Below, piece by piece: positions 1,452 through 56,407 of a DNA stretch of 64,000 nt. The notes beneath the pieces were generated by a model. The model was not told the DNA's origin. It ran no database searches and saw only the letters and a program-made list of their open reading frames with translations. The stretch is from an uncultured Candidatus Saccharibacteria bacterium (GTDB taxonomy: Bacteria > Patescibacteriota > Dojkabacteria > J137), in contig OZ246402.1 of assembly GCA_965230975.1 (NCBI GenBank), positions 444,667 to 508,666 on the forward strand. Direction: 5' to 3'. Made by a program: the position numbers and the translations under genes. Within the stretch, counting starts at the first letter, position 1. Each line of letters opens with the position of its first letter.

Positions 1452-1482
1452 AGTTTTAATAATTAAAATTTAATTTAAGAAT

Positions 1483-13010: not shown

Positions 13011-13139
13011 GTATAAAAAAAGTAGATTGCCTCGGGTTTGGGAATTCCTTAACCCCATTTCAGAGTAATAACTCTGCCAATCTACTTAAATAATTATCAC
13101 CTATATACTGAAAAGTGTCAATATATAGGTGATTCAACC

Positions 13140-13694: not shown

Positions 13695-13765
13695 AAGTAA
13701 TTTTTAAAAAATATATTTAAATTATATTTGAATATTAACCAATATACAATAATAGCAACAAACTA

Positions 13766-35924: not shown

Positions 35925-36072
35925 TTGTAAAGTCTAATTCAGTAAATTAATACTACAAAGGCTTATTACTTAAAATTTAATATAGAGTATAATTAGAAAC
36001 CCTCTATTTTTTAAAACTTGTTTCATTAGAAAGAGTTTATTAAAACAATCGATACAAGTTTTTGTAAGCTTA

Positions 36073-41409: not shown

Positions 41410-41712
41410 ATGAAGAATAGATTTAAAGACAGAACTCGTCTTGCAACTGCCGATGAAGAAGAATATGTTGAACAACCAGTCAAACACATTTCGAATAAGA
41501 AAAAACTTAGAAATTTAGGATTAGGCGGAATTTGGTCAGCGATACGAGCAGAAGATGGCAATATATGGGTAAACTACTATGGAGAACCTTGTATTGTTGA
41601 ACAAAATCCTGTTTACATGATAACTCCACTCGGACAGCCACCAGTGCCTATAGAAATCCATTTCACGCTAGTTGATGATGAACCGTGGGGATTTGGACCT
41701 ATAGAACTCTAA
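41410..41712 (+). CDS. Hypothetical protein
   Basis: 100-aa ORF. Confidence 0.4.
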   Translation: MKNRFKDRTRLATADEEEYVEQPVKHISNKKKLRNLGLGGIWSAIRAEDGNIWVNYYGEPCIVEQNPVYMITPLGQPPVPIEIHFTLVDDEPWGFGPIEL

Positions 41713-42386
41713 TCACAAATTTTGCCGTTCTCAAACTTTATTTTTCTTGTGGCAATCTCTTGAATTCTTTGATCGTGGCTAACAATTACAACACTTTTAC
41801 CCTGTTCAAAAGCAATCTCTTTTAATAAATTCATAACCTCTTCACCATTTCCCGAATCTAAATTAGCTGTAGGTTCATCTGCAAGAATAATTTCTGGGTT
41901 GTTAATCAATGCCCTGGCAATAGCAACTCTTTGTTTCTCTCCTCCACTTAAATTCTTTGGTAAATGATTAATTCTTTTATCAAGTTTTAATCTTTTTAAA
42001 ATAGACCTTGCTTCTTGTTCTGCGTCAGCTTTGGAAATACCTTTAATAAGTAAAGGTGTAATTACATTCTCTAAAACATTTAAAGATGAAAACAAATTGA
42101 AAGATTGAAAAATAAAGCCAACATTGTTTAATCTGTAATAAGTAAGTTGGTTCTCACTTAGCTTTGCAATATTCTTTCCCTCAAAATCTATAGTCCCAAA
42201 TGAAGGTCTTAATAAGCCACCCAACATACTAATTAAGGTTGTTTTACCACTGCCAGATGGGCCAATAATCAACAAAATTTCTTCTTTGTAAACTTCCAAA
42301 GATACATTATCAACTGCTTTAACCAAGGTATGCCCTTTCCCAAAAGTCTTTTTTAAATTTTTTGCAGTTAATACAGTTTGCTTCAT
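41709..42386 (-). CDS. ABC transporter ATP-binding protein (MacB/LolD-type)
   Basis: Walker A GPSGSGKTT, signature LSGGEKQRVAIARA, Walker B ILADEPTANLD. Confidence 0.9.
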   Translation of the reverse strand: MKQTVLTAKNLKKTFGKGHTLVKAVDNVSLEVYKEEILLIIGPSGSGKTTLISMLGGLLRPSFGTIDFEGKNIAKLSENQLTYYRLNNVGFIFQSFNLFSSLNVLENVITPLLIKGISKADAEQEARSILKRLKLDKRINHLPKNLSGGEKQRVAIARALINNPEIILADEPTANLDSGNGEEVMNLLKEIAFEQGKSVVIVSHDQRIQEIATRKIKFENGKICD

Positions 42387-42388
42387 AT

Positions 42389-43498
42389 TTAAGATTTAAA
42401 AACCACAGCTGGGTCAATGTTTGCAATCCGTTTTGCAGGAATCAAAACACTTAATGCGCTCATAAATAAAGATGTCGCAATAATGAATATTAAAATATTT
42501 GCATCAATTTTTACTTCTAGAAACGGAATGGATATTTTCAAAATCTCTCTGACAATAAAAGAACATAGTATCCCAAAGAAAATTCCAAATGCAGAAAACA
42601 TAAGGGATTGTTGCAGTAGCAATTTGTAAAACTTAAAGTTATTCATTCCAATAGCTTTTAAAACTCCAAATTCTGTTTGTTTATCTAGTGTTGCGGTATA
42701 GATTGTTAATCCAATAATTGCTGTGCCAACTAAAAATCCAATAACTACAATTGCCATAACAATTGGTAAAAAGGTTTCTTCTAAAACATTTAAATTTAAA
42801 TTAATAAATTCTGATTTTTTAATTACATTTATGTTAGAACTTAGTTTTTCAATCTCAGCCATAGCAACATCCACATCTGATTTATCACTTATACTAATAA
42901 ATAGATAGTTTGTAATATTAGGAACTTTAATTAACTCTTTGCCTTTAGATTTAGTGATAAACCCGTAGTAAGCATTAATAAAACTAGATCTTTCGATAGT
43001 TCCGGCTATAGTAAAGTCTGTATCGTAAATTTGGATAGTATCATTTAGTTTTAGATTATTCTTTTTTAAAAAATCTTCTCCAAGAATTATTTGGTTATCT
43101 GTAATTTTTAAGGTTCCACTAACTAAATCCCATGGCTTTCCAATTTGAGAATCGTCCTCGTAAGTTGTTAGTGTTAGTACACTTCTAACTCCATGCTTTT
43201 CAAAAGAGGCTTTAATTTGAATAATGCCGGCAACCTCTTCTACACCTTTTATATTTTTTATCTTCTCTTGGATATTATCTTGAATTATTGATGTTCCAAT
43301 GAACATATCTTTAACACCTTCTTGGGTTACAACCAAATCTGCAGGTGTTTTTTGTACATATCTTACAAATTGGTCTGACATACCAAAGTAAATCCCAAGC
43401 AATGTGACCATTAGCATTATGGAAAAAGAAACACCAGCTATGCTAATTACAAATTTTAACTTCTCTTGAAAAAGGTTCTTTCTTGCAAGCAAAAACAT
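42389..43498 (-). CDS. ABC transporter permease, FtsX/MacB-like (four TM with large periplasmic domain)
   Basis: One TM, ~200-aa periplasmic domain, three C-terminal TM. Cotranscribed with the ATPase. Confidence 0.85.
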   Translation of the reverse strand: MFLLARKNLFQEKLKFVISIAGVSFSIMLMVTLLGIYFGMSDQFVRYVQKTPADLVVTQEGVKDMFIGTSIIQDNIQEKIKNIKGVEEVAGIIQIKASFEKHGVRSVLTLTTYEDDSQIGKPWDLVSGTLKITDNQIILGEDFLKKNNLKLNDTIQIYDTDFTIAGTIERSSFINAYYGFITKSKGKELIKVPNITNYLFISISDKSDVDVAMAEIEKLSSNINVIKKSEFINLNLNVLEETFLPIVMAIVVIGFLVGTAIIGLTIYTATLDKQTEFGVLKAIGMNNFKFYKLLLQQSLMFSAFGIFFGILCSFIVREILKISIPFLEVKIDANILIFIIATSLFMSALSVLIPAKRIANIDPAVVFKS

Positions 43499-43573
43499 AT
43501 TTTTAAGTTGAATATCTTATTCTCCTATATTTCTAAAAGGGTAGCAATTAAAAATTTAGCCTAGAATAGATAC

Positions 43574-43602
43574 AAAAAGGGCCGACTTTCGTCGGCCCTT
43601 TT
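43574..43602. terminator. Rho-independent terminator (bidirectional), functional for the minus-strand gene 43617-44558
   Basis: AAAAA-GGGCCGAC-TTTC-GTCGGCCC-TTTT. Confidence 0.8.
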
Positions 43603-43616
43603 AAATGAAAATTCCT

Positions 43617-44558
43617 TTATTTTGATTCTGCTTTAGTTGAAATATAACTTAGGCTTGAATCAGATTCTATAATATCTCTAAATACTAATCCGCTAAATCT
43701 TGGGTAAAAGAAAAAGCTGTAATATGTTGAAATAACTGTAGAAACATAATTTACAACAAACATTGCAAATGTAAACAATATAGGGCTTACTAAAGAGAAG
43801 ACTCCAGCTATTGCACCTCCAACACCACCAAGTATTCCAACAACAAATCCAGTAGCAATACTTACCAAAAGTAATCCTAACAATTCTGGTTTATGTCTCA
43901 TAGCTAAATCCCAATTGTCTTTTAATTTAAATGCCTCTGAGAATGTATTTGTTGCAACCAATCTTAATAAGCCTGGCGTAACAATAAAGTATGAAAGAAC
44001 TGCTAGAACAGCAAGAATTGCCAAGAAAAGAATCCCAAAAAAGCAAACAAGTAATAAATAAATGCCATTAAGATTATTTAGGCTAGATAGCCCGTTTGTA
44101 GAAAACGCACCTCCGCTTAAAAGCATTATTGCAATAAGAAATACGCCTGCTATTAATGCAACAATAGTACCAATAACCAAACCGTAAATTGTAGATGCTA
44201 GTAAATATTTTAAAGATCTTTTTAATTTGTCTGCAAAATTGGCACCCCAAAGAGTTGTAGTTGCTCTTTTTTGAATTCCAGACTGAGTAGATTCATAGGT
44301 ATGCCAGCTACCAACAATAAGTGTTGGAATGACAAGTAAGCATACTATACAAGAGACTATTGCACTAAATAATGCTGTAGCAGAGTTTGTATTGTAAGAA
44401 CTTCGTAAATATCCATTGCTGTTAAAGCTTAATGTAGAGTTATCTGTAAATATTGATGGTAACGAGATTAAAAGTGTAAGAGCAAATGGTAATAGCATTT
44501 TAAGTGCCCAGTTCTTTTCTTTAAACAAAAATGTTAAAGAATCTTTTATTTTATCCAT
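43617..44558 (-). CDS. Hypothetical polytopic membrane protein
   Basis: 313 aa with about 6-7 TM helices. Confidence 0.5.
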   Translation of the reverse strand: MDKIKDSLTFLFKEKNWALKMLLPFALTLLISLPSIFTDNSTLSFNSNGYLRSSYNTNSATALFSAIVSCIVCLLVIPTLIVGSWHTYESTQSGIQKRATTTLWGANFADKLKRSLKYLLASTIYGLVIGTIVALIAGVFLIAIMLLSGGAFSTNGLSSLNNLNGIYLLLVCFFGILFLAILAVLAVLSYFIVTPGLLRLVATNTFSEAFKLKDNWDLAMRHKPELLGLLLVSIATGFVVGILGGVGGAIAGVFSLVSPILFTFAMFVVNYVSTVISTYYSFFFYPRFSGLVFRDIIESDSSLSYISTKAESK

Positions 44559-44640: not shown

Positions 44641-45051
44641 TTATAAAAAGTTAGTAATAGTAGAGAGTTCTAGCTTTTTATTTTTAAGATAATCGGAATA
44701 TCCAATAAGTTGACCAGGTCTAAACTGATCTTTGAGATTGTTTATTTGAGATTTATCCATCCAGTGAATACTTTGTATCTCGTCTGTAGGCATAAATTGA
44801 TCTTCTTTAATATATTTTGCTTTTATTCCAATTCCTAAAGCTCCAGGTATTAAGTAAAACCCTATAATATATTCGACTTCAATTTGGGCATTGGTTTCTT
44901 CTAAGACTTCTCTAATAGAAGCACTTTCGATGCTTTCGTTATTCATAACATGACCACCAGGAAAGCTATATTGTCCGCTTGACTCTTTCACTACAAGAAA
45001 TTTATTATCCTTTTCTACAATAACTCCAACCCCAACAAATATTTGATCCAT
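44641..45051 (-). CDS. NUDIX hydrolase
   Basis: Nudix box GGHVMNNESIESASIREVLEETN. Confidence 0.8.
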   Translation of the reverse strand: MDQIFVGVGVIVEKDNKFLVVKESSGQYSFPGGHVMNNESIESASIREVLEETNAQIEVEYIIGFYLIPGALGIGIKAKYIKEDQFMPTDEIQSIHWMDKSQINNLKDQFRPGQLIGYSDYLKNKKLELSTITNFL

Positions 45052-45052
45052 G

Positions 45053-46123
45053 TTATAAATCCCTTTTAATCATATAATCTGCAATGCCTTCTAAAAAAGC
45101 TCTGCCTTCTGGTTTCCAGTGAATGTGGTTTGTTGCAAGGCAACTTTCTGCAGATTTTACATAATTTAATGCTTTTTCTTTGCAGTAATCTAATGCCCCG
45201 CATTCTCTGATTATTTTTCTTGCCTCTTCTAGCTCTGTTTTTGTTATGTTTGGATTTCCTAGCAATTCTAAAAACCTCTTTTTAGTTTTGCCATGAGTCA
45301 TTTTGATAGTTCTTACAGTTAGTAAGTTTTGCTTACCTTCTTTTAAATCTGAATCCTCTGGTTTGCCTAGTTTTTCAGCATCACCAAACATTCCTAAAAT
45401 ATCGTCCTGTATTTGATACGCTATTCCAGCAGGTATTGCATATTCAGAAAGGGCTTTTAAGTCTTTTTCACTAGCACCTGCTAAAATTGCTCCAACGTAA
45501 AGTGGATTTTCGTAAGTGTACTTGGCTGTTTTTAATAAATTAATTTGAATTGCTTCGTATTCAGTAACTGTATCTTTTACCTCTGCTAAAACATCTAAAG
45601 CTTCTCCATAACCTGTGTATGCTAATCCTAAATTGAATTCACTCATAGCTTTAACAATTCTATCTGAATCCAAGCCGGAGTGGAGTAGTATATTTTCGGC
45701 AATATGGTTTAAAATTATACCTGCGCAAATTGCCATAGATTCCCCAAAGTGTCTACTATCTTTCTTTTTAAAGTGTTTAGCGTGGTAGTCCTGATAAATC
45801 TTGTGCACAGTTTCTTTTTTGTGTCTAATGTCATCTTGGTCAATAATATCATCCATAATCAGTATATAGATGTGTATTAGTTCTACAAATGCAGATGCTT
45901 TTAAAATTTTATCTTTTTCTGTCCCACCAAACATTAAGTAGCTATAGTAGGTAAGTGCTCCCCTAAGTCTTTTCCCGCCATGGGCTAGTGGAATAATATT
46001 TTGTACCATCTCTTTAATGAAGGGGGAGACATGTTTGGAGTGCTTAAACTCGTACTGTAGGTTTTCTTCAACAATTTTGTCTATTATTGGCGCCAATTCT
46101 GCTAAAGCTTTTTTTGCTTCCAT
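45053..46123 (-). CDS. Short-chain (E)-polyprenyl diphosphate synthase (FPP/GGPP synthase type)
   Basis: First aspartate-rich motif LIMDDIIDQDD, second IQDDILG. An aromatic Tyr 5 residues before the first motif suggests a short-chain C15-C20 product. Confidence 0.85.
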   Translation of the reverse strand: MEAKKALAELAPIIDKIVEENLQYEFKHSKHVSPFIKEMVQNIIPLAHGGKRLRGALTYYSYLMFGGTEKDKILKASAFVELIHIYILIMDDIIDQDDIRHKKETVHKIYQDYHAKHFKKKDSRHFGESMAICAGIILNHIAENILLHSGLDSDRIVKAMSEFNLGLAYTGYGEALDVLAEVKDTVTEYEAIQINLLKTAKYTYENPLYVGAILAGASEKDLKALSEYAIPAGIAYQIQDDILGMFGDAEKLGKPEDSDLKEGKQNLLTVRTIKMTHGKTKKRFLELLGNPNITKTELEEARKIIRECGALDYCKEKALNYVKSAESCLATNHIHWKPEGRAFLEGIADYMIKRDL

Positions 46124-46284
46124 ATTGACTTGCTGCTATCAATATACATTCAGTTGTTAAATAAAATAATTTACCAAATATAATTGACAACACGACTGTC
46201 GTAAATTTTAACATTTGCGAATGCATAAGTCTAGCGGTTTTATCCGCTTTTTAAATATCATTTAGTCTGTCAAGCCTGACAAGA

Positions 46285-46551
46285 TTAAATTTGCCATTTT
46301 ACAATCAAGGTGTAGTTTTTTAGGTAGTTATCTAGTTCGGTGTTTGCACAATAAAATCTAAATGGCAGAGCATTTGTAGGGTATTTTTTTATTGTGTAAT
46401 AATCCAGTTTGATTTGTTGAGTAATATTTTGTGAAATTAAATTTTCAGGTGCTTTTTTAATTATCCAATTTAAATACTGGTTAATATTGCTATATGTTTT
46501 GCCTTTTCTGTAGTCTTTGAGTTGATTTTGGTTTGTATAGTATATGTACAT
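46285..46551 (-). CDS. Hypothetical small protein (doubtful)
   Basis: 88-aa Tyr/Asn-rich ORF in a 580-bp spacer. Confidence 0.25.
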   Translation of the reverse strand: MYIYYTNQNQLKDYRKGKTYSNINQYLNWIIKKAPENLISQNITQQIKLDYYTIKKYPTNALPFRFYCANTELDNYLKNYTLIVKWQI

Positions 46552-46632
46552 TTCGTTTTGTTTAAATATGGTTTGATTTTAAAAAATGAAGAGTTTTTTG
46601 TCTTTGTATTCAAAAACAATGTGTTTTACGCC

Positions 46633-46659
46633 TAAATTTGCGTTATGGCACAATGTGAC
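46633..46659 (+). promoter_or_regulatory. Recurrent motif TAAATTTGCGTTatgGCACAATG upstream of the APH-like gene
   Basis: 21 of 27 nt identical to the site at 47621-47647. ATTTGCG cores are also present at 46214-46220 and 48484-48490. Confidence 0.4.
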
Positions 46660-46702
46660 TTCTTTTTAATTTTGATACAATTCGTAATTAATATTAAAAC
46701 CA

Positions 46703-47623
46703 ATGTGCAATCTTGAATTTCAGATACATTTAATTACGCATTTAGAATCTTTGCTTGGGCAAAGTATTGTTGATAGTTCAACTCCACCTCAAGGTATGGG
46801 TAGTCACGTCTTTTTTGTAAAGACTGAGACTGGTAAGGAGTATGCAGTCAAGTACGGTGTAGATGCTGGTAAAGATGTTCCTGCTTTAAAGCTTATAAAA
46901 GATAAAGATTTAAAAATCCCGGTACCAAACTTAATTGCTTATTTTGAGTTTGATTCTGTGCCAGTTGTTATTCTGGAAAAGATCGATTTCCCATTATTAG
47001 AAAAGGTTCCTGTAGAAAGGTTATCTGAATATATTCCGTCAATGGTTAATTGCTTAAGAAGTTTGCATGAATTGAAGAGTCCAAAGCCTGGGCGAGTTGC
47101 AGAACAGAATTTTAGTATAAGCTGGAAGTCAATGATTAAATCAATTTTTGATGGTTCTCAATTTGATTGGAAAGAAGTTTCAGAAAGGAGTGGAGTAGAT
47201 GGAATCTTAATATTAAAGTCAGTAGAAAATATCTTAGCCAAGATTGAAAGTATTAATTTGCCAGATAATAATTTTTCACTTTTGCATACAGATTTTAATC
47301 AAAGAAATTTATTTGTAGATTTAAGTAGTAATAAAATAACCGGGGTGATTGATTGGGAAGATGCAATGTATGGAGACCCGATTTTTGATTTTGCCAGAGT
47401 TAGAATGTTTATTTGGCATTTTGGTTTATCTGAAAATGTTGTGAAAGATTATTATGATTTAATGGATTACACTTCTGATGAAAGGGCTAGGGAGGATTTT
47501 TATTGGTTGGTTAGGGTTATTCAATATTTAGCATGGTATTCAGAAGATTTAAACGAGTTTTCAATTTCACGAATTAAACTTCATCAAGAGTTTTTAAGAG
47601 ATTATAATTGGGATAACTTTTAA
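46703..47623 (+). CDS. Aminoglycoside-phosphotransferase-fold small-molecule kinase (APH/choline-kinase-like)
   Basis: Catalytic loop LLHTDFNQRNLFVD (HxDxxxxN) and the metal-binding motif VIDWEDAMYGDPIFD. Confidence 0.7.
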   Translation: MCNLEFQIHLITHLESLLGQSIVDSSTPPQGMGSHVFFVKTETGKEYAVKYGVDAGKDVPALKLIKDKDLKIPVPNLIAYFEFDSVPVVILEKIDFPLLEKVPVERLSEYIPSMVNCLRSLHELKSPKPGRVAEQNFSISWKSMIKSIFDGSQFDWKEVSERSGVDGILILKSVENILAKIESINLPDNNFSLLHTDFNQRNLFVDLSSNKITGVIDWEDAMYGDPIFDFARVRMFIWHFGLSENVVKDYYDLMDYTSDERAREDFYWLVRVIQYLAWYSEDLNEFSISRIKLHQEFLRDYNWDNF

Positions 47624-47647
47624 ATTTGCGTTGCGACACAATGCAAG
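47621..47647 (+). promoter_or_regulatory. Second copy of the TAAATTTGCGTTgcgACACAATG motif upstream of the XRE-GAF regulator gene
   Basis: See the site at 46633-46659. Confidence 0.4.
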
Positions 47648-47718
47648 TCCTTGTATTTCTTGCTAATATCTTCAAGTCATATTTGTCAACAACTGTTGGA
47701 ATAAGTTAAAATCCTTAA

Positions 47719-48480
47719 TTGAAAATTTGTATGGATAATTCAAAAACCACATTGGGTCAAAAGATTCGAAAGTATAGGTTGCGATCTGGCAAGAGTCAGC
47801 TTGAGCTGGAACTTGAAACGGGTCTATCTACTGGGACTATTAGTAGAATTGAGAATGATAGTATTAATCCAACTAAAGAGACACTGGGTAAATTAATAGA
47901 GGTTTTGAATCTAAGTGGTATTGAGTCTGCAAACCTATTTGATATTGAGTTACCAGCTGTACCAAGATTAATTTCCCTAACTAATGATATTAATAATGCA
48001 ACAGATTTAAAGAAAATACTTCAAATTTCTGTGGATGAAATCGCTAAAGATTTAAACTTACATGGTGCACTGATAGCTTTAAAAGATGGGGACTTGTTAA
48101 AAGCAATGACTGTTACAAATTCATGGTTTGCTATATTAATGACTAATTTAATAGGTAAATCTGTGAATGAACTGTGTTTAGTTATAAGTAATACTCCTCA
48201 AAATTTGTTTGTTAAAGCAATGGAAACACATAAGTCATATACCAGTAATGATCTTTATGACTTTAGTGCTGGTACATTTCCTAAATCTTTGACTCCCATT
48301 GTGCAAAAAGCTACTAAACACGGTTCTGGTATTGTTTTCCCATTGCTAGACGGCGATGTATCTATCGGTGGTATTATGTTTACAAAAAGTTATTTTGATA
48401 ATTTTGATTATGAATTTGAAATATTAGAGGCATTTGCAGAAGCTGTTTCTAAAGCAATTGTTAAAGTAAGGAGTTTGTGA
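47719..48480 (+). CDS. XRE-family HTH transcriptional regulator with a C-terminal GAF-like sensor domain
   Basis: HTH_XRE (LGQKIRKYRLRSGKSQLELELETGLSTGTISRIEN) plus a ~150-aa GAF-like C-terminus. Confidence 0.75.
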   Translation: MKICMDNSKTTLGQKIRKYRLRSGKSQLELELETGLSTGTISRIENDSINPTKETLGKLIEVLNLSGIESANLFDIELPAVPRLISLTNDINNATDLKKILQISVDEIAKDLNLHGALIALKDGDLLKAMTVTNSWFAILMTNLIGKSVNELCLVISNTPQNLFVKAMETHKSYTSNDLYDFSAGTFPKSLTPIVQKATKHGSGIVFPLLDGDVSIGGIMFTKSYFDNFDYEFEILEAFAEAVSKAIVKVRSL

Positions 48481-48687
48481 GTAATTTGCGAGAAATATAC
48501 ATAAGAATTAGGGCATCAATTGCTAAATCAAAAAATTGCTGAGATACTTATACAAAGATTTGTATAGCTTAAAACTTAATTTATTAGACTTAAGGAATAA
48601 TGGTAATAAAATTTATACTAAACCAATTATAATCTTAAACATAGAATAACTCTTATATATTACTTATTTAATATAACTATTTCTGAT

Positions 48688-49794
48688 TTGAGTTTTGAAA
48701 GTTTAATAAATTTATCAATTGAACTTTCAAAGAAGTACTCAATGCCAATACAAAAAGCCGACTTAGATGCTATGGTAGTTAGTGACTGGAAATTTCTATT
48801 AAAAAGTTTCCCCAGATTCATTACTTTCTATCTAGAAATGAACAAAAATCTTAAAGACTTATCTATAGACAGTAATAGAAATGAATATCTATTTGGATGG
48901 ATGTTTTATGCAACTAAGGCAACATCTTTATTTTCAATTCAATACCATAAAGAATTATTTGAAATAGATGGTGTTAAAGTAAATATAGCGGAGGCAAGTA
49001 GTTATGTTAAATCGATAAGTTTAATATTAGATATTTTAGTAGATGATATTGGTGATAAGTATCAGGGAATTAATTCAATCCTAATTTTAGATTGCATAAA
49101 AAATATAATAAAACAGCAATCTCAAAAAAACATTCAAGTTTTAAATGCTAAAGAAGTGTCATATATTAATTTTTTTGAGAAAGTTTATAATTATTTACTA
49201 AGTTTAATTAGTTTCAATAACGACAAAGACTTGATTTTGATACTTACTCAATCTTATCTAGATTTAATCGATGCTTGCAAATTAAGTCATCAAATAAATT
49301 ATTCGATCAATAACAACGATTACGCTCAAGCCAAGAAATATTCAGATAGAGCATTTAAAACAAAATCTTTAGATAATAAAATGCATGTAAAAATAAATAC
49401 TGTAATAGATTTATTTTTTGTAAAGAAAACTTTTACCCTAGATAAAGATATTTCCAGATTTTCGAAAGTTGCATTTTATCTTCAGAGGGTTTCAAGACTA
49501 TCAAATGATTTAAGCACTTGGGAAAGAGAAGTCTGGTCAAATGATTTTACAAGTACAATAGCAAGATTATTAATTTTCAAATATGGAGTTAGAAATTTTT
49601 CTCAAGAGATTGATGAAAAATTGTACTTGAAAGTTAAAGAGGATTTTTCTAAAACATACAAAACTAACCTTAAAAATTTGATAAACTTAAAAAGTACTTT
49701 TTATAAAGAATATCCTTGGTTTAATTTTGATGAGTTAATTGAACGTTATATAGCAGGCTTAGTCTTACATATCCAAGCAATAGGTAAAATATAG
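48688..49794 (+). CDS. Class I terpene synthase-like protein (terpenoid cyclase fold) - candidate
   Basis: DDxxD at 119-123 (LVDDIGD). NSE/DTE triad at 273-281 (NDLSTWERE, fits (N/D)Dxx(S/T)xxxE). RY pair at 353-354 (ERYIAG). Spacings of 154 aa and 80 aa match those in bacterial sesquiterpene and diterpene synthases. Size of 368 aa. Polyprenyl diphosphate synthase lies 2.5 kb upstream. Confidence 0.6.
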   Translation: MSFESLINLSIELSKKYSMPIQKADLDAMVVSDWKFLLKSFPRFITFYLEMNKNLKDLSIDSNRNEYLFGWMFYATKATSLFSIQYHKELFEIDGVKVNIAEASSYVKSISLILDILVDDIGDKYQGINSILILDCIKNIIKQQSQKNIQVLNAKEVSYINFFEKVYNYLLSLISFNNDKDLILILTQSYLDLIDACKLSHQINYSINNNDYAQAKKYSDRAFKTKSLDNKMHVKINTVIDLFFVKKTFTLDKDISRFSKVAFYLQRVSRLSNDLSTWEREVWSNDFTSTIARLLIFKYGVRNFSQEIDEKLYLKVKEDFSKTYKTNLKNLINLKSTFYKEYPWFNFDELIERYIAGLVLHIQAIGKI

Positions 49795-49796
49795 AT

Positions 49797-51863
49797 ATGT
49801 TTATACAAAATATAATTCAAAAAATAATGTATCCGAATTCTCACACGGATTACTTCAAGGTAAGAGCCACTAATCCCTCCGGTTACCAAACCTCTCGAGA
49901 GAAAAGATATCAAACAATACAAAATATTACCAAGCTGTTAGTTGCAACTTTAGAGTTTGAAGTTATATCGCAAAGAGTTGTGGACATTATGGTTGAGCAG
50001 ATGGATTACTTGGGAGGTATATTATTCATCCCAGATAAGAATACTCAAAAACTTATTCCATGGACTACATCTGATTCGCCTGTAGTTAATCAAATATTGA
50101 AGATTCTCCCCAAAAAATTAAGAGAATATAATCAAAGCTATGAAGATGTGAGTACCAATAATCTAGTAGCTAAGACCTTCATAGAGAAAAAAGTATATCA
50201 GTCAAGTTATTATCCTGAGTTTATTTCCCCAGCAGTGCCTGAGTCTCAAGCTAAACTTATACAAAAACTTACAGGTACTAAGGAAAGTATTTCCTATCCT
50301 ATTATTTATAAAGATACAGTTTTGGGGGTGGCTCTATTTGTATCGAATAAGGAAACTTTATCGGAAGAAGAGAAGGAAATGTTGCAGACATTTACAGAGT
50401 TAGTAGGAGTCACTTTAAACACTGCAAAGCTATTTGAAGAGATTAATAATCAAATCTTTCAGTTAACAAAAAAAAACGAAGACTTATCTTCTTTATACAA
50501 CCTGACTGCTAATGTATCTCGTTCTTTGGACCCTTTTAAAGTAGCTCAAGCTGCAGTTAATTCCATTCCTCAAGATAAGATGCTGGTTGGGTCAGTGCTA
50601 ACCAGATATTACCCGGACAAAAACTACGTAGCACCATTAGTAACAAGTGAAAACCAACTATCTTACGCAGTAAGAAAATTAATTGGTGACTTTACACAAT
50701 ACGGACTAAAACTAGATGACCCAGAAGCACAAGTAAACCTGGTTGTAAGAGTCGTAAAAACAGAAACACCAATGTTTACAAACAACATATCTGAATTCTT
50801 TGTACCCGCACTAGGATCTCAATTCTTAGACCCAATAGCAAAAATCATAAACATAAAATGCGTAGCAACATACCCATTAATAATACGTGGAAGAACAATC
50901 GGAGCACTATCATTCATGATAAAAGAAAAAAACGCAGAAGAGATAGATGCAAACGAAAAACAATTACTACAAACATACACAAACCAAATCGCAATCGCAT
51001 TAGAAAATGCTAATCTATTTGCACAATCACAAGAAATACAAGCCAAACTAGAAAAAACACTAAAAGAACTAGAGGCAGCAAGAAAACACGAAAGAGACAT
51101 GATAGACATAATGGGTCACGAACTAAGAACCCCAATGTCTATAGTCAGAAACGCACTAATAATGATGGATACACAAATCAAAGCTAACCCTGCAGACCTA
51201 ATGGACAAAATAAAAAGATATGTGGATATAGGGGTAGAATCTGCTAGACGAGAAGTATCTTTAATAGAAACATTATTATCTGCAACAAAAACAGATGGTA
51301 AAGGATTTCAACTATTACTTGAAAAAGTAGATTTAAACGACATAATAAACAACTCCCTAATAGCATTTAAAAGAGAGGCAGAAAGAAAAGGTTTGACACT
51401 AACATTCGAACCACCGCAAACACCAGTGCTTGTTTATGCAGATAAAACTAGAATTCAGGAAATAGCAGACAACTTTATTAATAACGCAATTAAATACACC
51501 ATGAGGGGTAACATAAATATAAAAGTTTGGGACCAAGAAGGATATGGTTATGTATCAGTTAAAGATAGCGGAATTGGAATATCTGAAGAGGATCTAAAAA
51601 AATTAGGACAAAAATTCTTTAGAGCAAGACAATATATAGATGATGTAGATCCAAATACTTTATCACCAGAAAAACTAGAAGTTGTAAGACCAGGTGGAAC
51701 CGGATTGGGATTATTCGTGACATTTAACTTAATAAAAATAATGGATGGAAAGTTAGATGTTCAAAGTAAAGTTAAAGAAGGTAGTACTTTCACTTTTGCA
51801 ATGCCAATATTTTCTGGTCAGCAAACTAAGCAAATTGAACGAAAAGTTGAACCATCAGAGTAG
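49797..51863 (+). CDS. Cytoplasmic sensor histidine kinase with tandem GAF domains
   Basis: Two GAF-like regions, a coiled coil, the H-box MGHELRTPM, HATPase N, G1 (VKDSGIGI) and G2 (GGTGLGL). Start codon 3 nt after the upstream stop. Confidence 0.85.
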   Translation: MFIQNIIQKIMYPNSHTDYFKVRATNPSGYQTSREKRYQTIQNITKLLVATLEFEVISQRVVDIMVEQMDYLGGILFIPDKNTQKLIPWTTSDSPVVNQILKILPKKLREYNQSYEDVSTNNLVAKTFIEKKVYQSSYYPEFISPAVPESQAKLIQKLTGTKESISYPIIYKDTVLGVALFVSNKETLSEEEKEMLQTFTELVGVTLNTAKLFEEINNQIFQLTKKNEDLSSLYNLTANVSRSLDPFKVAQAAVNSIPQDKMLVGSVLTRYYPDKNYVAPLVTSENQLSYAVRKLIGDFTQYGLKLDDPEAQVNLVVRVVKTETPMFTNNISEFFVPALGSQFLDPIAKIINIKCVATYPLIIRGRTIGALSFMIKEKNAEEIDANEKQLLQTYTNQIAIALENANLFAQSQEIQAKLEKTLKELEAARKHERDMIDIMGHELRTPMSIVRNALIMMDTQIKANPADLMDKIKRYVDIGVESARREVSLIETLLSATKTDGKGFQLLLEKVDLNDIINNSLIAFKREAERKGLTLTFEPPQTPVLVYADKTRIQEIADNFINNAIKYTMRGNINIKVWDQEGYGYVSVKDSGIGISEEDLKKLGQKFFRARQYIDDVDPNTLSPEKLEVVRPGGTGLGLFVTFNLIKIMDGKLDVQSKVKEGSTFTFAMPIFSGQQTKQIERKVEPSE

Positions 51864-52376: not shown

Positions 52377-53687
52377 ATGGAACGTACACTAATAAAACAA
52401 ACACCAGAAATGGTAGGTACAACAGTAAAACTACAAGGTTGGGCAGAAACAGTTAGAGACATGGGAAAGCTTACATTTATAGACCTAAGAGATAGAACCG
52501 GCAAAATACAGATAGTTGGCTATCAATTAATGAAAGATGTAACAACAGAATCTGTAATTGAGATTGTAGGAGAAGTAAAAAAAAGACCAGAGAAAATGAT
52601 AAACCCAGACATGATTACCGGAACAGTAGAAATTGACGTAAAAGAATACAAAATCTTAAGTAAATCAGAACCTTTGCCAATACCAGTAATTATAGAACAA
52701 GGCACAAACGAAACAGAATCTGAAAAAAGAATGGACTACAGATGGATAGACTTAAGAAAAGAAAAGAACAACTTAATCTTTAAAGTTTGGACAACATTTG
52801 AAAACGCTGCAAGAGAATACTTTATTCAAAACGAGTACATGCAAATGCACTCTCCAAAATTAATTGGAGCCCCGAGCGAAAGCGGAGCAGAAGTATTTGA
52901 AGTTAAATACTTTGAAGGTAAAGCTTATTTAGCTCAATCTCCACAGTTTTACAAACAAATGGCAATGGCGGCAGGTTACGAGAAAGTATTTGAATTTGGT
53001 CCAGTTTTTAGAGCGGAAAACTCTTACACAATAAGACATGCAACGGAGTTCACAGGAATGGACCTAGAGATCTCTTACATTGAATCATATAAAGATGTAA
53101 TGGCAGAAGAAGAAAAATTAATTGCACACATTATTACAAGAATAAAAGAAAAACATGGGGAAGAAATAAAAAAGATTTTGGGAGTAGAAATTGTAGTTCC
53201 AACAATCCCCTTCCCTAAAATGACAATTGCAGAAGCAAAAGTTATTTTGGGCAAATTAGGATTACCAAGTGAAAAAGAAGGAGACTTGTCATCGGAAGAA
53301 GAAAAAGCTTTAGGTAAATATGCATTAGAGGAACTTGGTCACGAATTTATATTTTTAACAGAATATCCACAAGAGTTTAGAGCGTTTTACCACATGAGAT
53401 CTGAAGATGGTAAGTTTTCACAAAGTGCAGACTTGATTCATAAAGGCTTAGAAATTACTACATTGGCTCAAAGGGAACATAGATATGAAGTTTTAAAAGC
53501 ACAGGCATTAGAAAGGGGAATTTCACAAGAATCAATTCAATTCTACTTAGATTTCTTTAGATATGGTTGTCCTCCACATGGTGGATTAGGTTTTGGCCCT
53601 GCCAGATTTATTATGAAGTTGTTAGATCAACCAAGTATTAGAGAAACAACATATTTGTTTAGAAACCCTAAGAGATTAAATCCGTAA
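52377..53687 (+). CDS. aspS: Aspartyl-tRNA synthetase, archaeal/eukaryal type (class IIb, no GAD insertion)
   Basis: N-terminal OB fold. Motif 2 (FRAENSYTIRHATEF) and motif 3 (GGLGFGPARF) present. C-terminal ...NPKRLNP. 436 aa. Confidence 0.85.
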   Translation: MERTLIKQTPEMVGTTVKLQGWAETVRDMGKLTFIDLRDRTGKIQIVGYQLMKDVTTESVIEIVGEVKKRPEKMINPDMITGTVEIDVKEYKILSKSEPLPIPVIIEQGTNETESEKRMDYRWIDLRKEKNNLIFKVWTTFENAAREYFIQNEYMQMHSPKLIGAPSESGAEVFEVKYFEGKAYLAQSPQFYKQMAMAAGYEKVFEFGPVFRAENSYTIRHATEFTGMDLEISYIESYKDVMAEEEKLIAHIITRIKEKHGEEIKKILGVEIVVPTIPFPKMTIAEAKVILGKLGLPSEKEGDLSSEEEKALGKYALEELGHEFIFLTEYPQEFRAFYHMRSEDGKFSQSADLIHKGLEITTLAQREHRYEVLKAQALERGISQESIQFYLDFFRYGCPPHGGLGFGPARFIMKLLDQPSIRETTYLFRNPKRLNP

Positions 53688-53724
53688 CTCATTACGCCCT
53701 AAGAAATTAGGGCGTTTTAATAAT

Positions 53725-54660
53725 ATGAAATCTATTAAAGTCTTTTACCCAGTTGGGATAGAAAATATTTGGCATCATAATGCTGATAATACAAACAGGT
53801 ATAGATTAGATGGTATTGAAAAATTAGTTAGATTAAAAAGTCGAATAGATAAAGACCGGAAATTTAAATTAATAAATGTCTCGAATGTAGATATTGAAAC
53901 ATTAAAAAGTATTCATAGTATAGACTACATTGAGTCTTTAAAGACCGGTTCTCCTTTAAACCTTGCACAAACATCTGGTTTGATTTGGCAAGAATCACTA
54001 GCACAAGCATTTGCTAATTGTGCAAAATCTGTAACTCTGGCTTGTAAAGATGCTCTATTAAATAGAGCTTCTGTAGCCTTATCAAGCGGAGGTCATCATG
54101 CAATTAAATCGAGAGGATACGGTTTGAATCCAATTAGTGAAGTCGCTATTGCTATCGAGAATCTTCATAAAGAAAATCCAGACCTTAAAATAGTGGTTCT
54201 AGATTTAGATATTCATGCAGGGAACGGTTTTCAAAACTTATTACAGAACAAGAAAAATATCATAGTATATGATCTTTGGAGTAAAAGCATTTCTGAATGG
54301 GATATCCCTTTATATGCAACAAATATAAAATCATATAAAGTAGACACACTTGATGAGTATAAAATTTGTCTTGAGAATACTTTAAATGAGATTAAAGATT
54401 TGAACCCCGATTTGGTTATATATCACAGCGGAGCAGATGTAGTACAGACGGATAGATTAGGTGGAATTAGCGGGTTTACTAAAGATGATTTTGAGCAAAG
54501 GGAATTAAAAGTGATTTCAACGATTCTACATTTAGAAATACCAATAGCTGTAGTATTGGGTGGTGGTTATGTTAAGTATACAGATGCTAATCAGGTTGAA
54601 TCTTTAAGGGAAAAGTTAGTAGATTTGCATTACTATACTTTTAAGTTATTAACTGAATGA
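53725..54660 (+). CDS. Histone-deacetylase-family (arginase/deacetylase fold) amidohydrolase
   Basis: GGHHA motif (SSGGHHAIKS) and metal-binding DLDIHAGNG (variant of DxDxHHGDG). Confidence 0.7.
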   Translation: MKSIKVFYPVGIENIWHHNADNTNRYRLDGIEKLVRLKSRIDKDRKFKLINVSNVDIETLKSIHSIDYIESLKTGSPLNLAQTSGLIWQESLAQAFANCAKSVTLACKDALLNRASVALSSGGHHAIKSRGYGLNPISEVAIAIENLHKENPDLKIVVLDLDIHAGNGFQNLLQNKKNIIVYDLWSKSISEWDIPLYATNIKSYKVDTLDEYKICLENTLNEIKDLNPDLVIYHSGADVVQTDRLGGISGFTKDDFEQRELKVISTILHLEIPIAVVLGGGYVKYTDANQVESLREKLVDLHYYTFKLLTE

Positions 54661-55133
54661 GCCAATTAATCGTAGATAAAATTGTTAATTTGTTAGATTC
54701 ATTTGGGGTTCCCTACGAACTTCAGGATCACGAACCAACGCCTACAAGTGAAGATTCTGCTAAAGTTCGTGGCACGCCTATGGAGCAAGGTAGAAAGGCT
54801 ATGATCTTAAAAGGTAGAAAATCTGGCAAACGTATAATGATTGTTATTCAATCTAGTGAAAGAATTGATATGAAGAAGGTTAAGGCGTATTTTCAAGAAG
54901 ACTTTGAATTTGAAAAACCTGAAATAATATTACAAGATTTTGGGATAGAAATTGGCGGAATACCACCATTAGGAAATGTTTTAGGATTAGAAACATATTT
55001 TGACAAGCAAAATTTAAAGGAAAAAACAGCAGCTTTTAATTGCGGTCTTAAGACAAAATCGATTATCATGTCTGTAGAGGATTTAATTAAAGTTGTTAAA
55101 CCAACTATTGTAGATTTTAAAAAAGATTTATGA
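54657..55133 (+). CDS. YbaK/ProX-type aminoacyl-tRNA trans-editing deacylase
   Basis: About 160 aa with the YbaK-like core (KAMILKG...GGIPPLG). 4-bp overlap with the upstream gene. Confidence 0.6.
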   Translation: MSQLIVDKIVNLLDSFGVPYELQDHEPTPTSEDSAKVRGTPMEQGRKAMILKGRKSGKRIMIVIQSSERIDMKKVKAYFQEDFEFEKPEIILQDFGIEIGGIPPLGNVLGLETYFDKQNLKEKTAAFNCGLKTKSIIMSVEDLIKVVKPTIVDFKKDL

Positions 55134-55399
55134 CAGAAGAACACCAAGCAGCTAATAAATTTGCTTATGTAGATGCAAAATCTAGAAGAAGGATATTTGT
55201 AGATAACTTAGTTGGTGGAATTGCGTGGGGTGTAGGTAGTATTATTGGCGCAACTATTATTATCGGAGCTTTCGGGTTATTAGTAAGTAGATCTAGATAT
55301 ATTCCTTTGGTTGGTGATGTTGTTCAAGTAATTTTAGAAGAGATTCAACAAGGTAGAAACATAGACCTGTTTATTGAGGGAGAGACTACAAATAATTAG
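55130..55399 (+). CDS. Small hypothetical membrane protein
   Basis: 89 aa with one or two TM. Confidence 0.35.
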   Translation: MTEEHQAANKFAYVDAKSRRRIFVDNLVGGIAWGVGSIIGATIIIGAFGLLVSRSRYIPLVGDVVQVILEEIQQGRNIDLFIEGETTNN

Positions 55400-56025
55400 T
55401 TATGTGATCCAAGTATAGACTGCACTTTATTAAAGAAATCCTCTAGATCTGATTCAATTTGCATTTGATCTTTACCTTCTCTTTTTTCTGGCCAAAATTC
55501 AGTTGTGTCAAAAACTAAAATCCATGGATCTTGATCAATAATAAAGAAATCTAGGTCAATTAAGTTTGGCTTGATTTTTGCTAATAAATGCTTAATCCTA
55601 TCCATAAATAAAGCTCTGTTAGCAATTATTCCTTGCAAAACATTAATTGGCAAAGTTCTCAATTCAGAACCTCTTAGAATTAACTTATATTGATTTAATG
55701 CGTTATGTATAAAGGGCTGTATATTTGCGTATTCAATTTCATTTAGGTATTCTAACTCAAAATATATAGTTGTTAATATAAAGTTAGTTCCTTCAAAAAT
55801 TTGAGATACAAGTTGATGTTCTCTTTGGTGCTTTTCAAAAGTCAATTTTGTTAATAATTGATTATTTGCAGCCTTTCTTTTTAATATTTTAACTAAATAT
55901 CTTATACCATCTTTTTCGATAAGAAATGTGTTGTAGCATTTCCCTTCTAGCGGTGGTGTGTATGGATTCAGAAGGCCAGGAACTTCAGACACTGTGTTAC
56001 CTAAAAGTGGAGTTAATTGAATCAT
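55396..56025 (-). CDS. Hypothetical protein
   Basis: 209-aa ORF. Confidence 0.45.
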   Translation of the reverse strand: MIQLTPLLGNTVSEVPGLLNPYTPPLEGKCYNTFLIEKDGIRYLVKILKRKAANNQLLTKLTFEKHQREHQLVSQIFEGTNFILTTIYFELEYLNEIEYANIQPFIHNALNQYKLILRGSELRTLPINVLQGIIANRALFMDRIKHLLAKIKPNLIDLDFFIIDQDPWILVFDTTEFWPEKREGKDQMQIESDLEDFFNKVQSILGSHN

Positions 56026-56234
56026 TTTCGGAGTATATCACTCAGTACTTTTCTTTGACAAATCTCAACGTAAAAGATTGATATTTAGTGATTTATTCTA
56101 ATATTGCTGATATAATCTAAACAAATGTTCACAAAATTAAATAATAACAATAATAATTACTAACTCACTCGGAGTTTATTGTTATATATAAACTCCCAAA
56201 AGGGAGTTTTTGTTTATTTGGTGGATATTAATAA

Positions 56235-56306
56235 TGAGTAGTAGCTTAATGGTAAAGCCGACCGCTGTTAACGGTAAGACTCTAGGTTCGAGTCCTAGCT
56301 ACTCAG
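56235..56306 (+). tRNA. tRNA-Asn (anticodon GUU)
   Basis: Acceptor TGAGTAG/CTACTCA, anticodon loop CTGTTAA (same as canonical bacterial tRNA-Asn), T-arm CTAGG-TTCGAGT-CCTAG, discriminator G. Confidence 0.75.
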
Positions 56307-56333
56307 TAATTTAACAAGCTGTTAACGGGGCGA

Positions 56334-56358
56334 AAAGCAAGCTACTACTTGCTTTTTG
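56334..56358 (+). terminator. Terminator-like hairpin AAAGCAAG-ctacta-CTTGCTTT plus T-run immediately after tRNA-Asn
   Basis: 8-bp stem followed by TTTTT. Confidence 0.5.
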
Positions 56359-56381
56359 AGGTTCGAGTCCTACCGTCTCAG
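56359..56381 (+). repeat. Partial duplicate of the tRNA-Asn 3' half (T-arm plus acceptor strand)
   Basis: AGGTTCGAGTCCTAccgtCTCAG versus the tRNA AGGTTCGAGTCCTAgctaCTCAG. A copy of the anticodon-loop segment GCTGTTAACGG also lies at 56317-56327. Confidence 0.55.
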
Positions 56382-56407
56382 TATTTAAAATAAAATAAAT
56401 AACATCT

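Follow-up and report, generated by a model that had tools for sequence, protein, structure and literature searches.

A gene for a terpene-synthase-like protein (hereafter TSL) lies directly upstream of a sensor histidine kinase gene in the 64,000-nucleotide stretch of DNA analyzed here (the window), and its family, the adjacency to the kinase and the isoprenoid genes that recur nearby together suggest an undescribed, terpenoid-linked signalling module. The enzyme fold is one already known, whereas the TSL subfamily is new, as is the conserved signalling context in which it sits. On balance, we lean toward a reading in which TSL is a divergent class I synthase whose terpenoid product, or whose prenyl diphosphate pool, is read by the sensors co-expressed with it.

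The window derives from a small, AT-rich genome, and all five reading frames that an earlier, sequence-only reading had assigned to this locus were recovered at the same positions (Table 1). Public gene calls start TSL either at an ATG at 48742, which yields 350 amino acids, or at the upstream TTG; the longer form is favored because residues 2-18 align with a homologue (P0003). No transmembrane segment is predicted in TSL, the downstream kinase or the XRE-GAF regulator.

Table 1. Genes and motifs of the TSL locus, with window coordinates
Feature	Coordinates	Strand	Basis or remark
Small Nudix hydrolase	44641..45051	-	Pfam NUDIX, E 1.4e-11; 1 nt downstream of the prenyl synthase
Short-chain trans-isoprenyl diphosphate synthase (FPP/GGPP type)	45053..46123	-	Pfam polyprenyl_synt, 164.7 bits, E 3e-48
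APH-fold kinase	46703..47623	+	Pfam APH, E 1.8e-19
XRE-type HTH regulator with C-terminal GAF-like domain	47719..48480	+	Pfam HTH_3, E 1.2e-12
TSL, terpene-synthase-like protein, 368 aa	48688..49794	+	TTG start at 48688
DDxxD motif of TSL, DDIGD (D119, D120, I, G, D123)	49042..49056	+	C-terminal end of helix 100-124
NSE/DTE-type triad of TSL, N273-T277-E281 in NDLSTWERE	49504..49530	+	C-terminal end of helix 254-283
RY pair of TSL, R353-Y354	49744..49749	+	Last helix of TSL
Cytoplasmic GAF-GAF-HisKA-HATPase sensor histidine kinase	49797..51863	+	Pfam two GAF, HisKA, HATPase_c

The three class I hallmarks previously proposed for the 368-residue protein are all present: a DDxxD motif at residues 119-123, on a helix placed by the DSSP string of the AF2 model, an NSE/DTE-type triad at 273-281 and an RY pair at 353-354, 80 residues past N273. 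Among 200,000 composition-preserving shuffles of TSL, a DDxx[DE] motif together with an ordered NSE pattern 120-180 residues apart arose at a frequency of 9.5e-5, and when an RY pair 60-100 residues later was also required, no shuffle qualified (0 of 200,000); the motif set is thus not a chance product of composition. Alignment of 35 family members, which share 15-45% identity, shows that D119, D120, D123, T277 and E281 are invariant throughout and that residue 273 is Asn in 32 sequences and Asp in three, while an Asp at the second position of the triad is confined to the window's clade. Conservation of the hallmarks therefore holds for the DDxxD motif and the triad but not for the RY pair, which is kept in just three of the 35 members (the window protein, P0003 and P0005); most of the others carry a C-terminal HLxSRGxK instead. 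Five further residues, R64, K108, M232, D241 and D286, are invariant across the family. Four of these (R64, K108, M232 and D286) have, we presume, no counterpart among the class I terpene synthase hallmark motifs, and the polar residues R64, K108, D241 and D286 would not ordinarily be expected in a cyclase pocket and may point to a different chemistry.

The AF2 model of TSL (pLDDT 89.3, pTM 0.90) is all-alpha, and its top Foldseek matches are all class I terpene synthases; at the level of the predicted structure, TSL is thus shown to have the class I all-alpha terpene synthase fold, as the sequence-only reading would have it. Sequence similarity to characterized synthases is marginal. TSL is 6-13% identical to known bacterial class I synthases, scores 16.8 bits against Pfam Terpene_synth_C (cut-off 26.3), and is joined by six of 20 relatives in giving sub-threshold Pfam terpene-synthase matches. 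Only the family consensus exceeds a Pfam cut-off, that of Terpene_syn_C_2 (30.6 bits against 23.7), over a match spanning DDxxD to NSE; of the single members checked (the window protein and 20 relatives), none reaches a Pfam terpene-synthase threshold. The only PDB sequence match of the family profile is the diterpene synthase Sat1646 (E 0.055), in which the N..S..D triad in RLSNDLASYERD aligns residue-for-residue with the TSL triad, as does an Arg three residues before it. Inspection of the AF2 model revealed a helix break at 226-233 where the conserved residues are N-M-H...N-G..D rather than Arg, and the family shows no obvious canonical helix-G Arg sensor within this conserved NMH...D segment. 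An assignment of TSL as a trans-isoprenyl diphosphate synthase, which calls for two DDxxD motifs (FARM and SARM) together with a polyprenyl_synt HMM match, was rejected, as TSL does not display this combination.

Members of the TSL family are widespread in metagenome-assembled genomes (MAGs) labelled as candidate-phyla-radiation lineages, so that the earlier remark that a terpene synthase falls outside the expected repertoire of such a genome has to be qualified: the family is not peculiar to one genome. Every member is annotated as a hypothetical protein or carries no name, indicating that standard HMM-based mining misses the family.

The kinase that follows TSL retains its characteristic boxes (HELRTP at 441, with H441 as the H-box histidine, NFINNAIKY at 559, DSGIG at 590 and GTGLG at 634), and its ATG lies 2 nt beyond the TSL stop codon rather than the 3 nt first reported. 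The tight coupling itself is corroborated well beyond the window. A histidine kinase gene directly follows TSL on the same strand in 13 of 14 informative low-GC loci, among them MAGs labelled Wirthbacteria, Saccharibacteria, Nealsonbacteria and CPR2, and two incomplete low-GC loci outside this count retain a kinase N-terminus after TSL; the gap between the two genes is -4 to +29 nt in almost every low-GC locus examined. The pairing recurs in unrelated diderm bacteria, both in two Verrucomicrobia MAGs (L021, L028) and related metagenome contigs (L035, L039, L069) and in loci where TSL is fused to another domain (L083, L085, L087), and it is kept where all other flanking genes differ. The sensor part of the kinase varies among clades, comprising GAF-GAF, 7TM, HAMP, PAS-GAF or a giant Ser/Thr-kinase-AAA-TPR-GAF arrangement. 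Given this diversity, one ligand for all of the sensor domains is not the simplest reading, and the pairing of TSL with 7TM, HAMP or PAS kinases in related loci weakens the proposal that its product is the ligand of the GAF domains. No response regulator lies beside the kinase in the window, where the only receiver-domain reading frame (35238-35924) adjoins another kinase; response regulators do follow the TSL-linked kinase in L010 and L085.

Upstream of TSL, the XRE-type regulator has a full-length GAF_2 match just short of threshold (26.7 against 28.6 bits, E 7.3e-6). Five of six homologues also have GAF_2 hits, and the GAF-like domain of the regulator resembles GAF1 of the kinase (E 1e-7), such that the GAF domains of the two proteins are, by sequence comparison, paralogous. 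The regulator is 42% identical to the gene upstream of TSL in L004, has three paralogues in L007, and immediately precedes TSL in the three closest relatives, upholding the previously noted association of an XRE-GAF gene with TSL as a trait specific to the window's clade. The APH-fold kinase has an intact catalytic loop (HTDFNQRN at residue 195); a homologue was found in no related TSL locus examined, and the gene probably stands outside the conserved module. The suggestion that all five genes are conserved as a unit consequently fails, both for want of the APH gene in every relative examined and since L007, the closest long contig, contains no prenyl synthase within 8 kb of TSL.

Among NCBIfam models, the prenyl synthase best fits those of GGPP synthase and IdsA type, without reaching any of their equivalog cut-offs. 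It carries a FARM (DDIID at 91, with Tyr at position -5) and a SARM (DDILG at 240), from which we take its product, by the chain-length rule, to be short-chain. It had been described as lying 2.5 kb upstream of the synthase-like gene; the distance is accurate (2.56 kb to the TSL start), but the gene is on the opposite strand and divergent. Its proximity to TSL is nonetheless recurrent, with a short-chain prenyl synthase found no more than 2.5 kb away in nine related loci (L001, L008, L010, L011, L018, L020, L024, L029 and L061). Other isoprenoid genes also appear near TSL: an IPP isomerase in the CPR2 locus L029 and an HMG-CoA reductase adjoining TSL in L014. DXS is represented as well, by a complete gene that overlaps the one for PilZ-TSL in L084, and P0012 and P0014 are fusions of TSL with a DXS-like Transketolase_C domain. 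NCBIfam models do not identify the Nudix hydrolase of the window as an IPP isomerase, in contrast to the Nudix gene at the same position in L029, and whether the window's Nudix gene belongs to the module is uncertain. Phosphohydrolases of several kinds recur near the prenyl synthase (Nudix in the window, HD in L008, HAD in L011). The window also contains genes for a PBP and for a polyprenyl-phosphate glycosyltransferase (Glycos_transf_4), and the prenyl synthase may have no more than a housekeeping role, making FPP for the lipid carrier of peptidoglycan synthesis.

Beyond the low-GC loci, the largest TSL clade is Verrucomicrobia-like and of high GC; its constant neighbor is a TonB-dependent receptor, with a kinase adjacent in a minority of loci. 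A PilZ domain is fused to the TSL domain in four of 20 representatives. All four fused-form loci have a FadL/TodX gene beside TSL, and the fused domain, whether joined to PilZ or to a DXS-like domain, is flanked by FadL-type channels and by kinases with or without a response regulator. A GAF-GGDEF gene also occurs among the neighbors of TSL, and in L011 TSL lies near the core genes dnaA/dnaN and rpmH-rnpA-yidC.

These observations bear on several alternatives. It is conceivable, if unlikely, that TSL makes no ligand and instead serves as a metabolite-binding partner that contacts the kinase directly, as PII does NtrB, either reporting prenyl diphosphate occupancy or, conversely, being activated and inactivated by the kinase. 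Kinase sensor domains that vary around a constant enzyme partner and kinase core would suit such a role, as would gaps of -4 to +29 nt, which suggest translational coupling and near-stoichiometric synthesis; the PilZ fusions would make the enzyme a recipient rather than a source of the c-di-GMP signal in other lineages, and the kinase of the window has no adjacent response regulator. However, the catalytic metal ligands are strictly invariant as a complete set, which exceeds the needs of a binding-only role, and in the window's clade the same operon encodes a second, DNA-binding GAF sensor that acts independently of the kinase, for which a shared small-molecule ligand is the easier explanation. 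We regard as distinctly unlikely a scheme in which TSL makes a membrane or envelope component, or a free prenol, and the kinase regulates envelope homeostasis only, with no dedicated signal molecule involved. This scheme draws on the broad retention of the family in small-genome lineages with few dispensable genes, on the core genes near TSL in L011, on the recurring phosphohydrolases, and on the probable need for a prenyl synthase in any case to make the peptidoglycan carrier lipid, given the PBP and glycosyltransferase in the window. It leaves unexplained the PilZ fusions, the GAF-GGDEF, FadL/TodX and TonB-receptor neighbors, the triplication of the GAF regulator in L007, and the survival of the kinase pairing where the other flanking genes all differ.

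That TSL does not act on prenyl diphosphates at all, its fold having been reused for another diphosphate or an unrelated substrate, or having become an inactive scaffold with relic motifs, seems to us very improbable. The marginal similarity (a PDB profile match at E 0.055 and a Pfam score of 16.8 bits), the absence of RY and the usual effector residues from most members, and the presence of R64, K108, M232 and D286, which we take to be foreign to the hallmark motifs, could all be read in this way. Set against them are metal ligands that remain invariant over 35 sequences at 15-45% identity, a motif set that arises by chance at a frequency below 1e-4, and the recurrence of prenyl synthase, IPP isomerase, HMG-CoA reductase and DXS beside or fused to the TSL domain.

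In the reading we prefer, that of a divergent synthase coupled to sensors, TSL would bind FPP or GGPP supplied by the neighboring prenyl synthase and ionize the diphosphate, releasing a small hydrophobic terpenoid. This terpenoid, or the prenyl diphosphate pool, would then be read by the co-expressed sensors, which in the window's clade would be the cytoplasmic GAF-GAF kinase and the one-component XRE-GAF regulator, such that synthase and sensors might together serve autoregulation or signalling between cells as a single module. Among diderm relatives, the PilZ domain would add a c-di-GMP-binding input to a TSL domain encoded between a FadL/TodX channel for hydrophobic compounds and a kinase, an arrangement that fits a hydrophobic signal crossing the outer membrane. 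A bolder version, possible though doubtful, holds that TSL and the downstream kinase are a synthase-receptor pair for a terpenoid autoinducer. The pair would extend from the candidate phyla radiation, where the kinase is of GAF or 7TM type and, in the window, XRE-GAF regulators are added, to diderms, where c-di-GMP would gate synthesis through PilZ and a FadL-type channel would pass the hydrophobic signal across the outer membrane. Were this so, it would represent a previously unrecognized class of bacterial chemical signalling and could mediate communication between small-genome episymbionts and their host or partner cells. More generally, very small genomes have kept a divergent family of synthase-like proteins that carries no annotation. 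Through its coupling to kinases across phyla and its fusion to a c-di-GMP receptor elsewhere, this family would form a direct link between terpenoid chemistry and signal transduction. As a clonable pair of enzyme and sensor, the two genes also provide a tangible way to ask what uncultivated bacteria with small genomes perceive or give off.

Bacterial terpene synthases are known mostly for volatile or specialized metabolites in large-genome organisms, and to our knowledge almost none of their products has a dedicated receptor. Like the bacterial class I synthases with which we compared it (Terpene_syn_C_2 enzymes such as isopimaradiene synthase Sat1646, 7e4n/7e4o, biformene synthase LrdC, 6oh6, selinadiene synthase, 4okm, and epi-isozizaene synthase, 3kb9), TSL has one helix that ends in a DDxxD motif, another that ends in an N..S/T..E triad, and a prenyl synthase nearby. 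Unlike them, the family lacks RY in 32 of 35 members, has the extra invariant residues R64, K108, M232 and D286, and has a histidine kinase rather than tailoring enzymes as its constant neighbor. Structure-model mining of actinomycetes has uncovered non-canonical class I terpene synthases, classes IB-IF, that escape ordinary sequence searches yet have a predicted class I fold, with Sat1646 as the structural reference; many are hypothetical proteins encoded at most a few genes away from an E-isoprenyl diphosphate synthase, and they lack the canonical motifs, class ID using D(N/D), ND and RXXKD (Abe et al., 2024; PMC11234867). No linkage to signalling genes was reported for them (PMC11234867). 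Compared with these classes by description, the TSL family retains DDxxD and NSE.

A parallel in gene organization is the cyanobacterial 2-methylisoborneol operon, in which two cyclic-nucleotide-binding (Crp-Fnr type) regulator genes flank a terpene cyclase (PMC3072421). In each locus, a cyclase or cyclase-like gene shares a strand and a putative operon with regulators that are paralogous to one another and bind, or would bind, small molecules. The regulators differ, being cNMP-binding transcription factors in the one case and a GAF kinase and XRE-GAF protein in the other, and the 2-methylisoborneol cyclase is canonical and characterized, with a regulator pairing not known to extend across phyla. 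Quorum-sensing systems such as LuxI/LuxR and LuxM/LuxN likewise pair the genes for a signal synthase and its receptor, in their case for acyl-homoserine lactones. The adjacency of enzyme and sensor across lineages that marks such pairs is seen for TSL in low-GC loci, in several Verrucomicrobia-like loci and in the fused forms. At the level of the genes, then, TSL resembles these systems in that a possible maker of a small molecule is encoded beside a sensor kinase or one-component regulator; it differs from them in the fold of the enzyme and in its presumed product, a terpenoid rather than an acyl-homoserine lactone.

Within the class I terpene synthase superfamily, the 368-aa terpene-synthase-like protein of this locus belongs to a distant branch that carries no annotation. 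Its DDxxD motif, NSE triad and RY pair lie at residues 119-123, 273-281 and 353-354, exactly where the sequence-only reading had put them; in 200,000 shuffles, an ordered DDxx[DE] and NSE at plausible spacing arose at a frequency of 9.5e-5, and the same pair followed by RY not at all (0 occurrences). Searches with the single sequence returned little: Pfam Terpene_synth_C scored 16.8 bits, under its cut-off of 26.3, NCBIfam models gave no match, a PDB sequence search gave no significant match, and word-indexed homologue searches (NCBI and Logan contigs) recovered only the protein itself, a profile query adding one relative. The family emerged only when 1.84 billion representatives were searched exhaustively with HMMER, which yielded 20 relatives at 24-33% identity. 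All family members that carry a source name are labelled 'hypothetical protein', and genome and metagenome scans using the alignment of the closest subfamily gave no matches.

Alignment of 35 family sequences shows that D119, D120, D123, T277 and E281 are invariant, as are R64, K108, M232, R270 and D286, with position 273 occupied by N in 32 sequences and by D in three. Conservation in the family holds for the DDxxD and the triad but not for the RY pair, which, besides the window protein, only two of the three closest relatives have; most other members end in HLxSRGxK. In Pfam, the single protein fell short of Terpene_synth_C, and the family consensus reached 30.6 bits against Terpene_syn_C_2 (cut-off 23.7; profile positions 7-187 of 199). 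The sole PDB sequence match of the family profile is the bacterial diterpene synthase Sat1646, whose triad aligns residue for residue. Taken by itself, the single sequence argues weakly for a terpene synthase identity.

The predicted structure argues for it strongly. An AlphaFold2 model built from an alignment of 11 relatives is all-helical (pLDDT 89.3, pTM 0.90), and a Foldseek search agrees with a terpene synthase fold. Helix 100-124 of the model has the DDxxD at its C-terminus, and helix 254-283 ends with the triad, an arrangement shared with class I enzymes. On the strength of the shuffle test and this fold, a chance origin of the motifs was rejected. The family retains the metal-binding machinery and diverges in other signature residues.

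All five open reading frames described earlier are present in the region (see table). Its label as candidate phyla radiation draws on three things: 31% GC, the 1.19-Mb contig, and the names given to MAGs with related modules. The prenyl synthase carries DDIID with Tyr at -5, plus DDILG; the APH protein has the catalytic loop HxDxxxxN; and the H, N, G1 and G2 boxes of the 688-aa kinase are all intact. No membrane segments are predicted in any plus-strand protein of the locus. The enzyme's stop codon is separated from the kinase ATG by 2 nt, rather than the 3 nt previously reported. For the XRE-GAF regulator, a single-sequence structure model reached a pLDDT of only 36; Pfam and resemblance to GAF1 of the kinase underlie its GAF assignment. 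A promoter and terminator scan was uninformative (48 promoter-like sites versus 38.5 expected), and an inverted-repeat scan of the intergenic regions found no convincing operator. A 14-nt inverted repeat (TTTGAAAGTTTAAT / ATTGAACTTTCAAA; 93% complementary, 10-nt spacer) falls between the candidate TTG (48688) and ATG (48742) starts of the synthase-like gene and might serve as an operator or form a hairpin in the mRNA; the same stretch also aligns with homologues as protein. The prenyl synthase and APH genes diverge from a 580-bp intergenic region that contains an 88-aa ORF, possibly spurious, which public records call as a gene and which has no family match.

Features of the window and of related loci (numbered L), with positions on each sequence
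Sequence	Feature	Position	Strand	Remarks
Window	820-aa fusion	26989-29451	-	pyridine-nucleotide disulphide oxidoreductase, rhodanese, TusA and DsrE-like domains
Window	OmpR/PhoB-type response regulator	35238-35924		sole receiver domain of the window
Window	DUF4118-PAS-HisKA-HATPase kinase	36073-37857		forms a conventional two-component pair (35238-37857) with the preceding regulator
Window	DUF4013 membrane protein and ABC pair	41709-44558	-	
Window	MacB/FtsX-type ATPase	41709-42386	-	
Window	MacB/FtsX-type permease	42389-43498	-	
Window	Nudix hydrolase, 136 aa	44641-45051	-	starts 1 nt past prenyl synthase
Window	polyprenyl synthase, 356 aa	45053-46123	-	Pfam polyprenyl_synt, E 3e-48
Window	88-aa ORF	46285-46551	-	
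Window	APH-fold kinase, 306 aa	46703-47623	+	Pfam
Window	XRE-type HTH protein, 253 aa	47719-48480	+	GAF_2 match full-length but sub-threshold
Window	terpene-synthase-like protein, 368 aa	48688-49794	+	
Window	inverted repeat	48694-48731		
Window	GAF-GAF-HisKA-HATPase kinase, 688 aa	49797-51863	+	Pfam
Window	tRNA synthetase block	52377-57730		
L007	segment syntenic with that block	13120-16762		
L010	YjbQ/UPF0047	1040-1483		
L017	YjbQ/UPF0047	7097-7519		
L018	YjbQ/UPF0047	5364-5807		
L048	TonB-dependent receptor locus	2523-4763		
L083	FadL/TodX channel	1371-2720		
L084	FadL/TodX channel	761-2065		
L085	FadL/TodX channel	4544-5761		
L087	FadL/TodX channel	2088-3407		

Elsewhere in the window, the 820-aa fusion has a sulfur-transfer/CoA-disulfide-reductase-like architecture. 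The DUF4013 and ABC transporter genes lie on the same strand as, and downstream of, the prenyl synthase-Nudix pair, and were not seen in related loci. Downstream of the kinase, the tRNA synthetase block includes a pair of paralogous class II synthetases of Asp/Asn type, a YbaK-like editing domain, DUF5665, tRNA-Asn and a histone-deacetylase-family protein; the deacetylase-family gene excepted, it is syntenic with L007, the closest long relative.

A scan of species-representative genomes gave 16 loci carrying family members, to which metagenomes added 53, and we built a neighbour-joining tree of the family with its gene context. Three homologues are closest to the window protein. Around two of them, P0003 (L004) and P0004 (L005/L006), on short contigs, an XRE-GAF gene lies upstream (42% identity); downstream, the N-terminal part of a kinase gene (60% identity) overlaps the enzyme stop codon. 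The 71-kb contig L007, which carries the third, P0005, shares downstream synteny with the window (AspRS, YbaK-like, DUF5665 and a second class II synthetase) and encodes the enzyme, a GAF kinase of 691 aa and three paralogous XRE(-GAF) proteins; prenyl synthase, APH and Nudix genes are all absent from the 8 kb upstream. Among more distant relatives, L008 comprises a divergent prenyl synthase, the enzyme and a GAF kinase; L010 a prenyl synthase, YjbQ, an IPP isomerase (IDI) fragment, the enzyme, a 7TM kinase and a response regulator; and L011 a divergent prenyl synthase, HAD, the enzyme and a kinase. In the species-representative genomes, a kinase lies directly 3' of the enzyme in all the MAGs labelled Wirthbacteria, Saccharibacteria, Nealsonbacteria (three) and CPR2. 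The CPR2 locus (L029) comprises a kinase, prenyl synthase, IPP isomerase, enzyme and kinase, and HMG-CoA reductase adjoins the enzyme divergently in a groundwater 'Deltaproteobacteria' MAG.

A same-strand kinase adjoins the enzyme in 13 of the 14 non-redundant low-GC loci with enough downstream DNA, and a prenyl synthase lies within 2.5 kb in nine low-GC loci, both counts being phylogenetically non-independent. Gaps between the enzyme and kinase gene calls run from -4 to +29 nt, and the pair is kept even where every other flanking gene differs. The five genes are not one conserved cluster, since only the enzyme-kinase pair is general; the APH kinase, missing from all related loci, drops out of the proposed terpenoid-linked module. 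The sequence-only interpretation is partly borne out and becomes more specific: conservation extends to the enzyme and the kinase, often with a prenyl synthase nearby, and with the XRE-GAF regulator restricted to the window's clade. The window Nudix protein was rejected as an IPP isomerase, having no IDI match; the L029 Nudix has one. YjbQ/UPF0047 ('secondary thiamine-phosphate synthase') is a recurrent neighbour of the enzyme gene, encoded in L018 (a Saccharibacteria MAG), its close relative L010 and L017 (a Verrucomicrobia locus).

Within a large high-GC clade that includes several Verrucomicrobia MAGs, a divergent TonB-dependent receptor always lies upstream (25 loci: L017, L019, L021, L022 and 21 from metagenomes) and no more than about five of the 25 have an adjoining kinase; the receptor is a separate conserved partnership of the synthase-like gene. 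Diderm bacteria also carry forms fused to PilZ or to a DXS-like Transketolase_C domain, and every fused form examined adjoins a gene for an outer-membrane channel of the FadL/TodX family, which serves hydrophobic compounds. In L083 the channel gene is followed by the Transketolase_C fusion, a 1694-aa Ser/Thr-kinase-AAA-TPR-GAF-histidine kinase and two response regulators, a layout repeated in L087 with a 34%-identical giant kinase; in L085 by the PilZ fusion, a HAMP kinase (3 nt gap) and a response regulator; and in L084 by GAF-GGDEF, a full DXS overlapping the PilZ fusion, and an FAD monooxygenase. The survey thus reveals two general associations of the enzyme, one with isoprenoid supply and the other with signal transduction.

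Our analysis establishes the fold, the conserved Mg2+/diphosphate ligands, the tight and widespread kinase pairing, and recurrent isoprenoid-biosynthesis neighbours or fusions. We lean modestly toward a composite reading in which the enzyme would take FPP or GGPP from the adjoining prenyl synthase and give off a hydrophobic terpenoid, and the kinase and XRE-GAF regulator would respond to that terpenoid or to the precursor pool; the FadL/TodX channels and PilZ input of diderm forms would be consistent with a regulated hydrophobic signal crossing the membrane. The constancy of the enzyme partner while kinase sensor domains vary among clades favors the main rival, in which the enzyme would sense a metabolite as an accessory subunit of the kinase or would itself be under kinase control; we consider this unlikely overall. 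Slightly less probable again is a housekeeping lipid role with co-regulation only: the window's organism makes peptidoglycan and so requires FPP regardless, but the signalling fusions would be left unexplained. The family is putatively catalytic, and a non-terpenoid or inactive role strikes us as very unlikely.

In the literature covered, which is incomplete, we found no account of a module pairing a terpene synthase with a kinase, nor of this family, so that an earlier description may exist. The family resembles bacterial class I terpene synthases in its fold and two motifs, but its identity to them is 6-13%, most members have lost RY, further polar residues are invariant, and its partner is a kinase. 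It escapes sequence mining, as do the structure-mined 'non-canonical' class I synthases (PMC11234867), but it keeps DDxxD and NSE, which they do not. The nearest genomic precedent is the cyanobacterial 2-methylisoborneol operon, which is flanked by two cyclic-nucleotide-binding regulators (PMC3072421).
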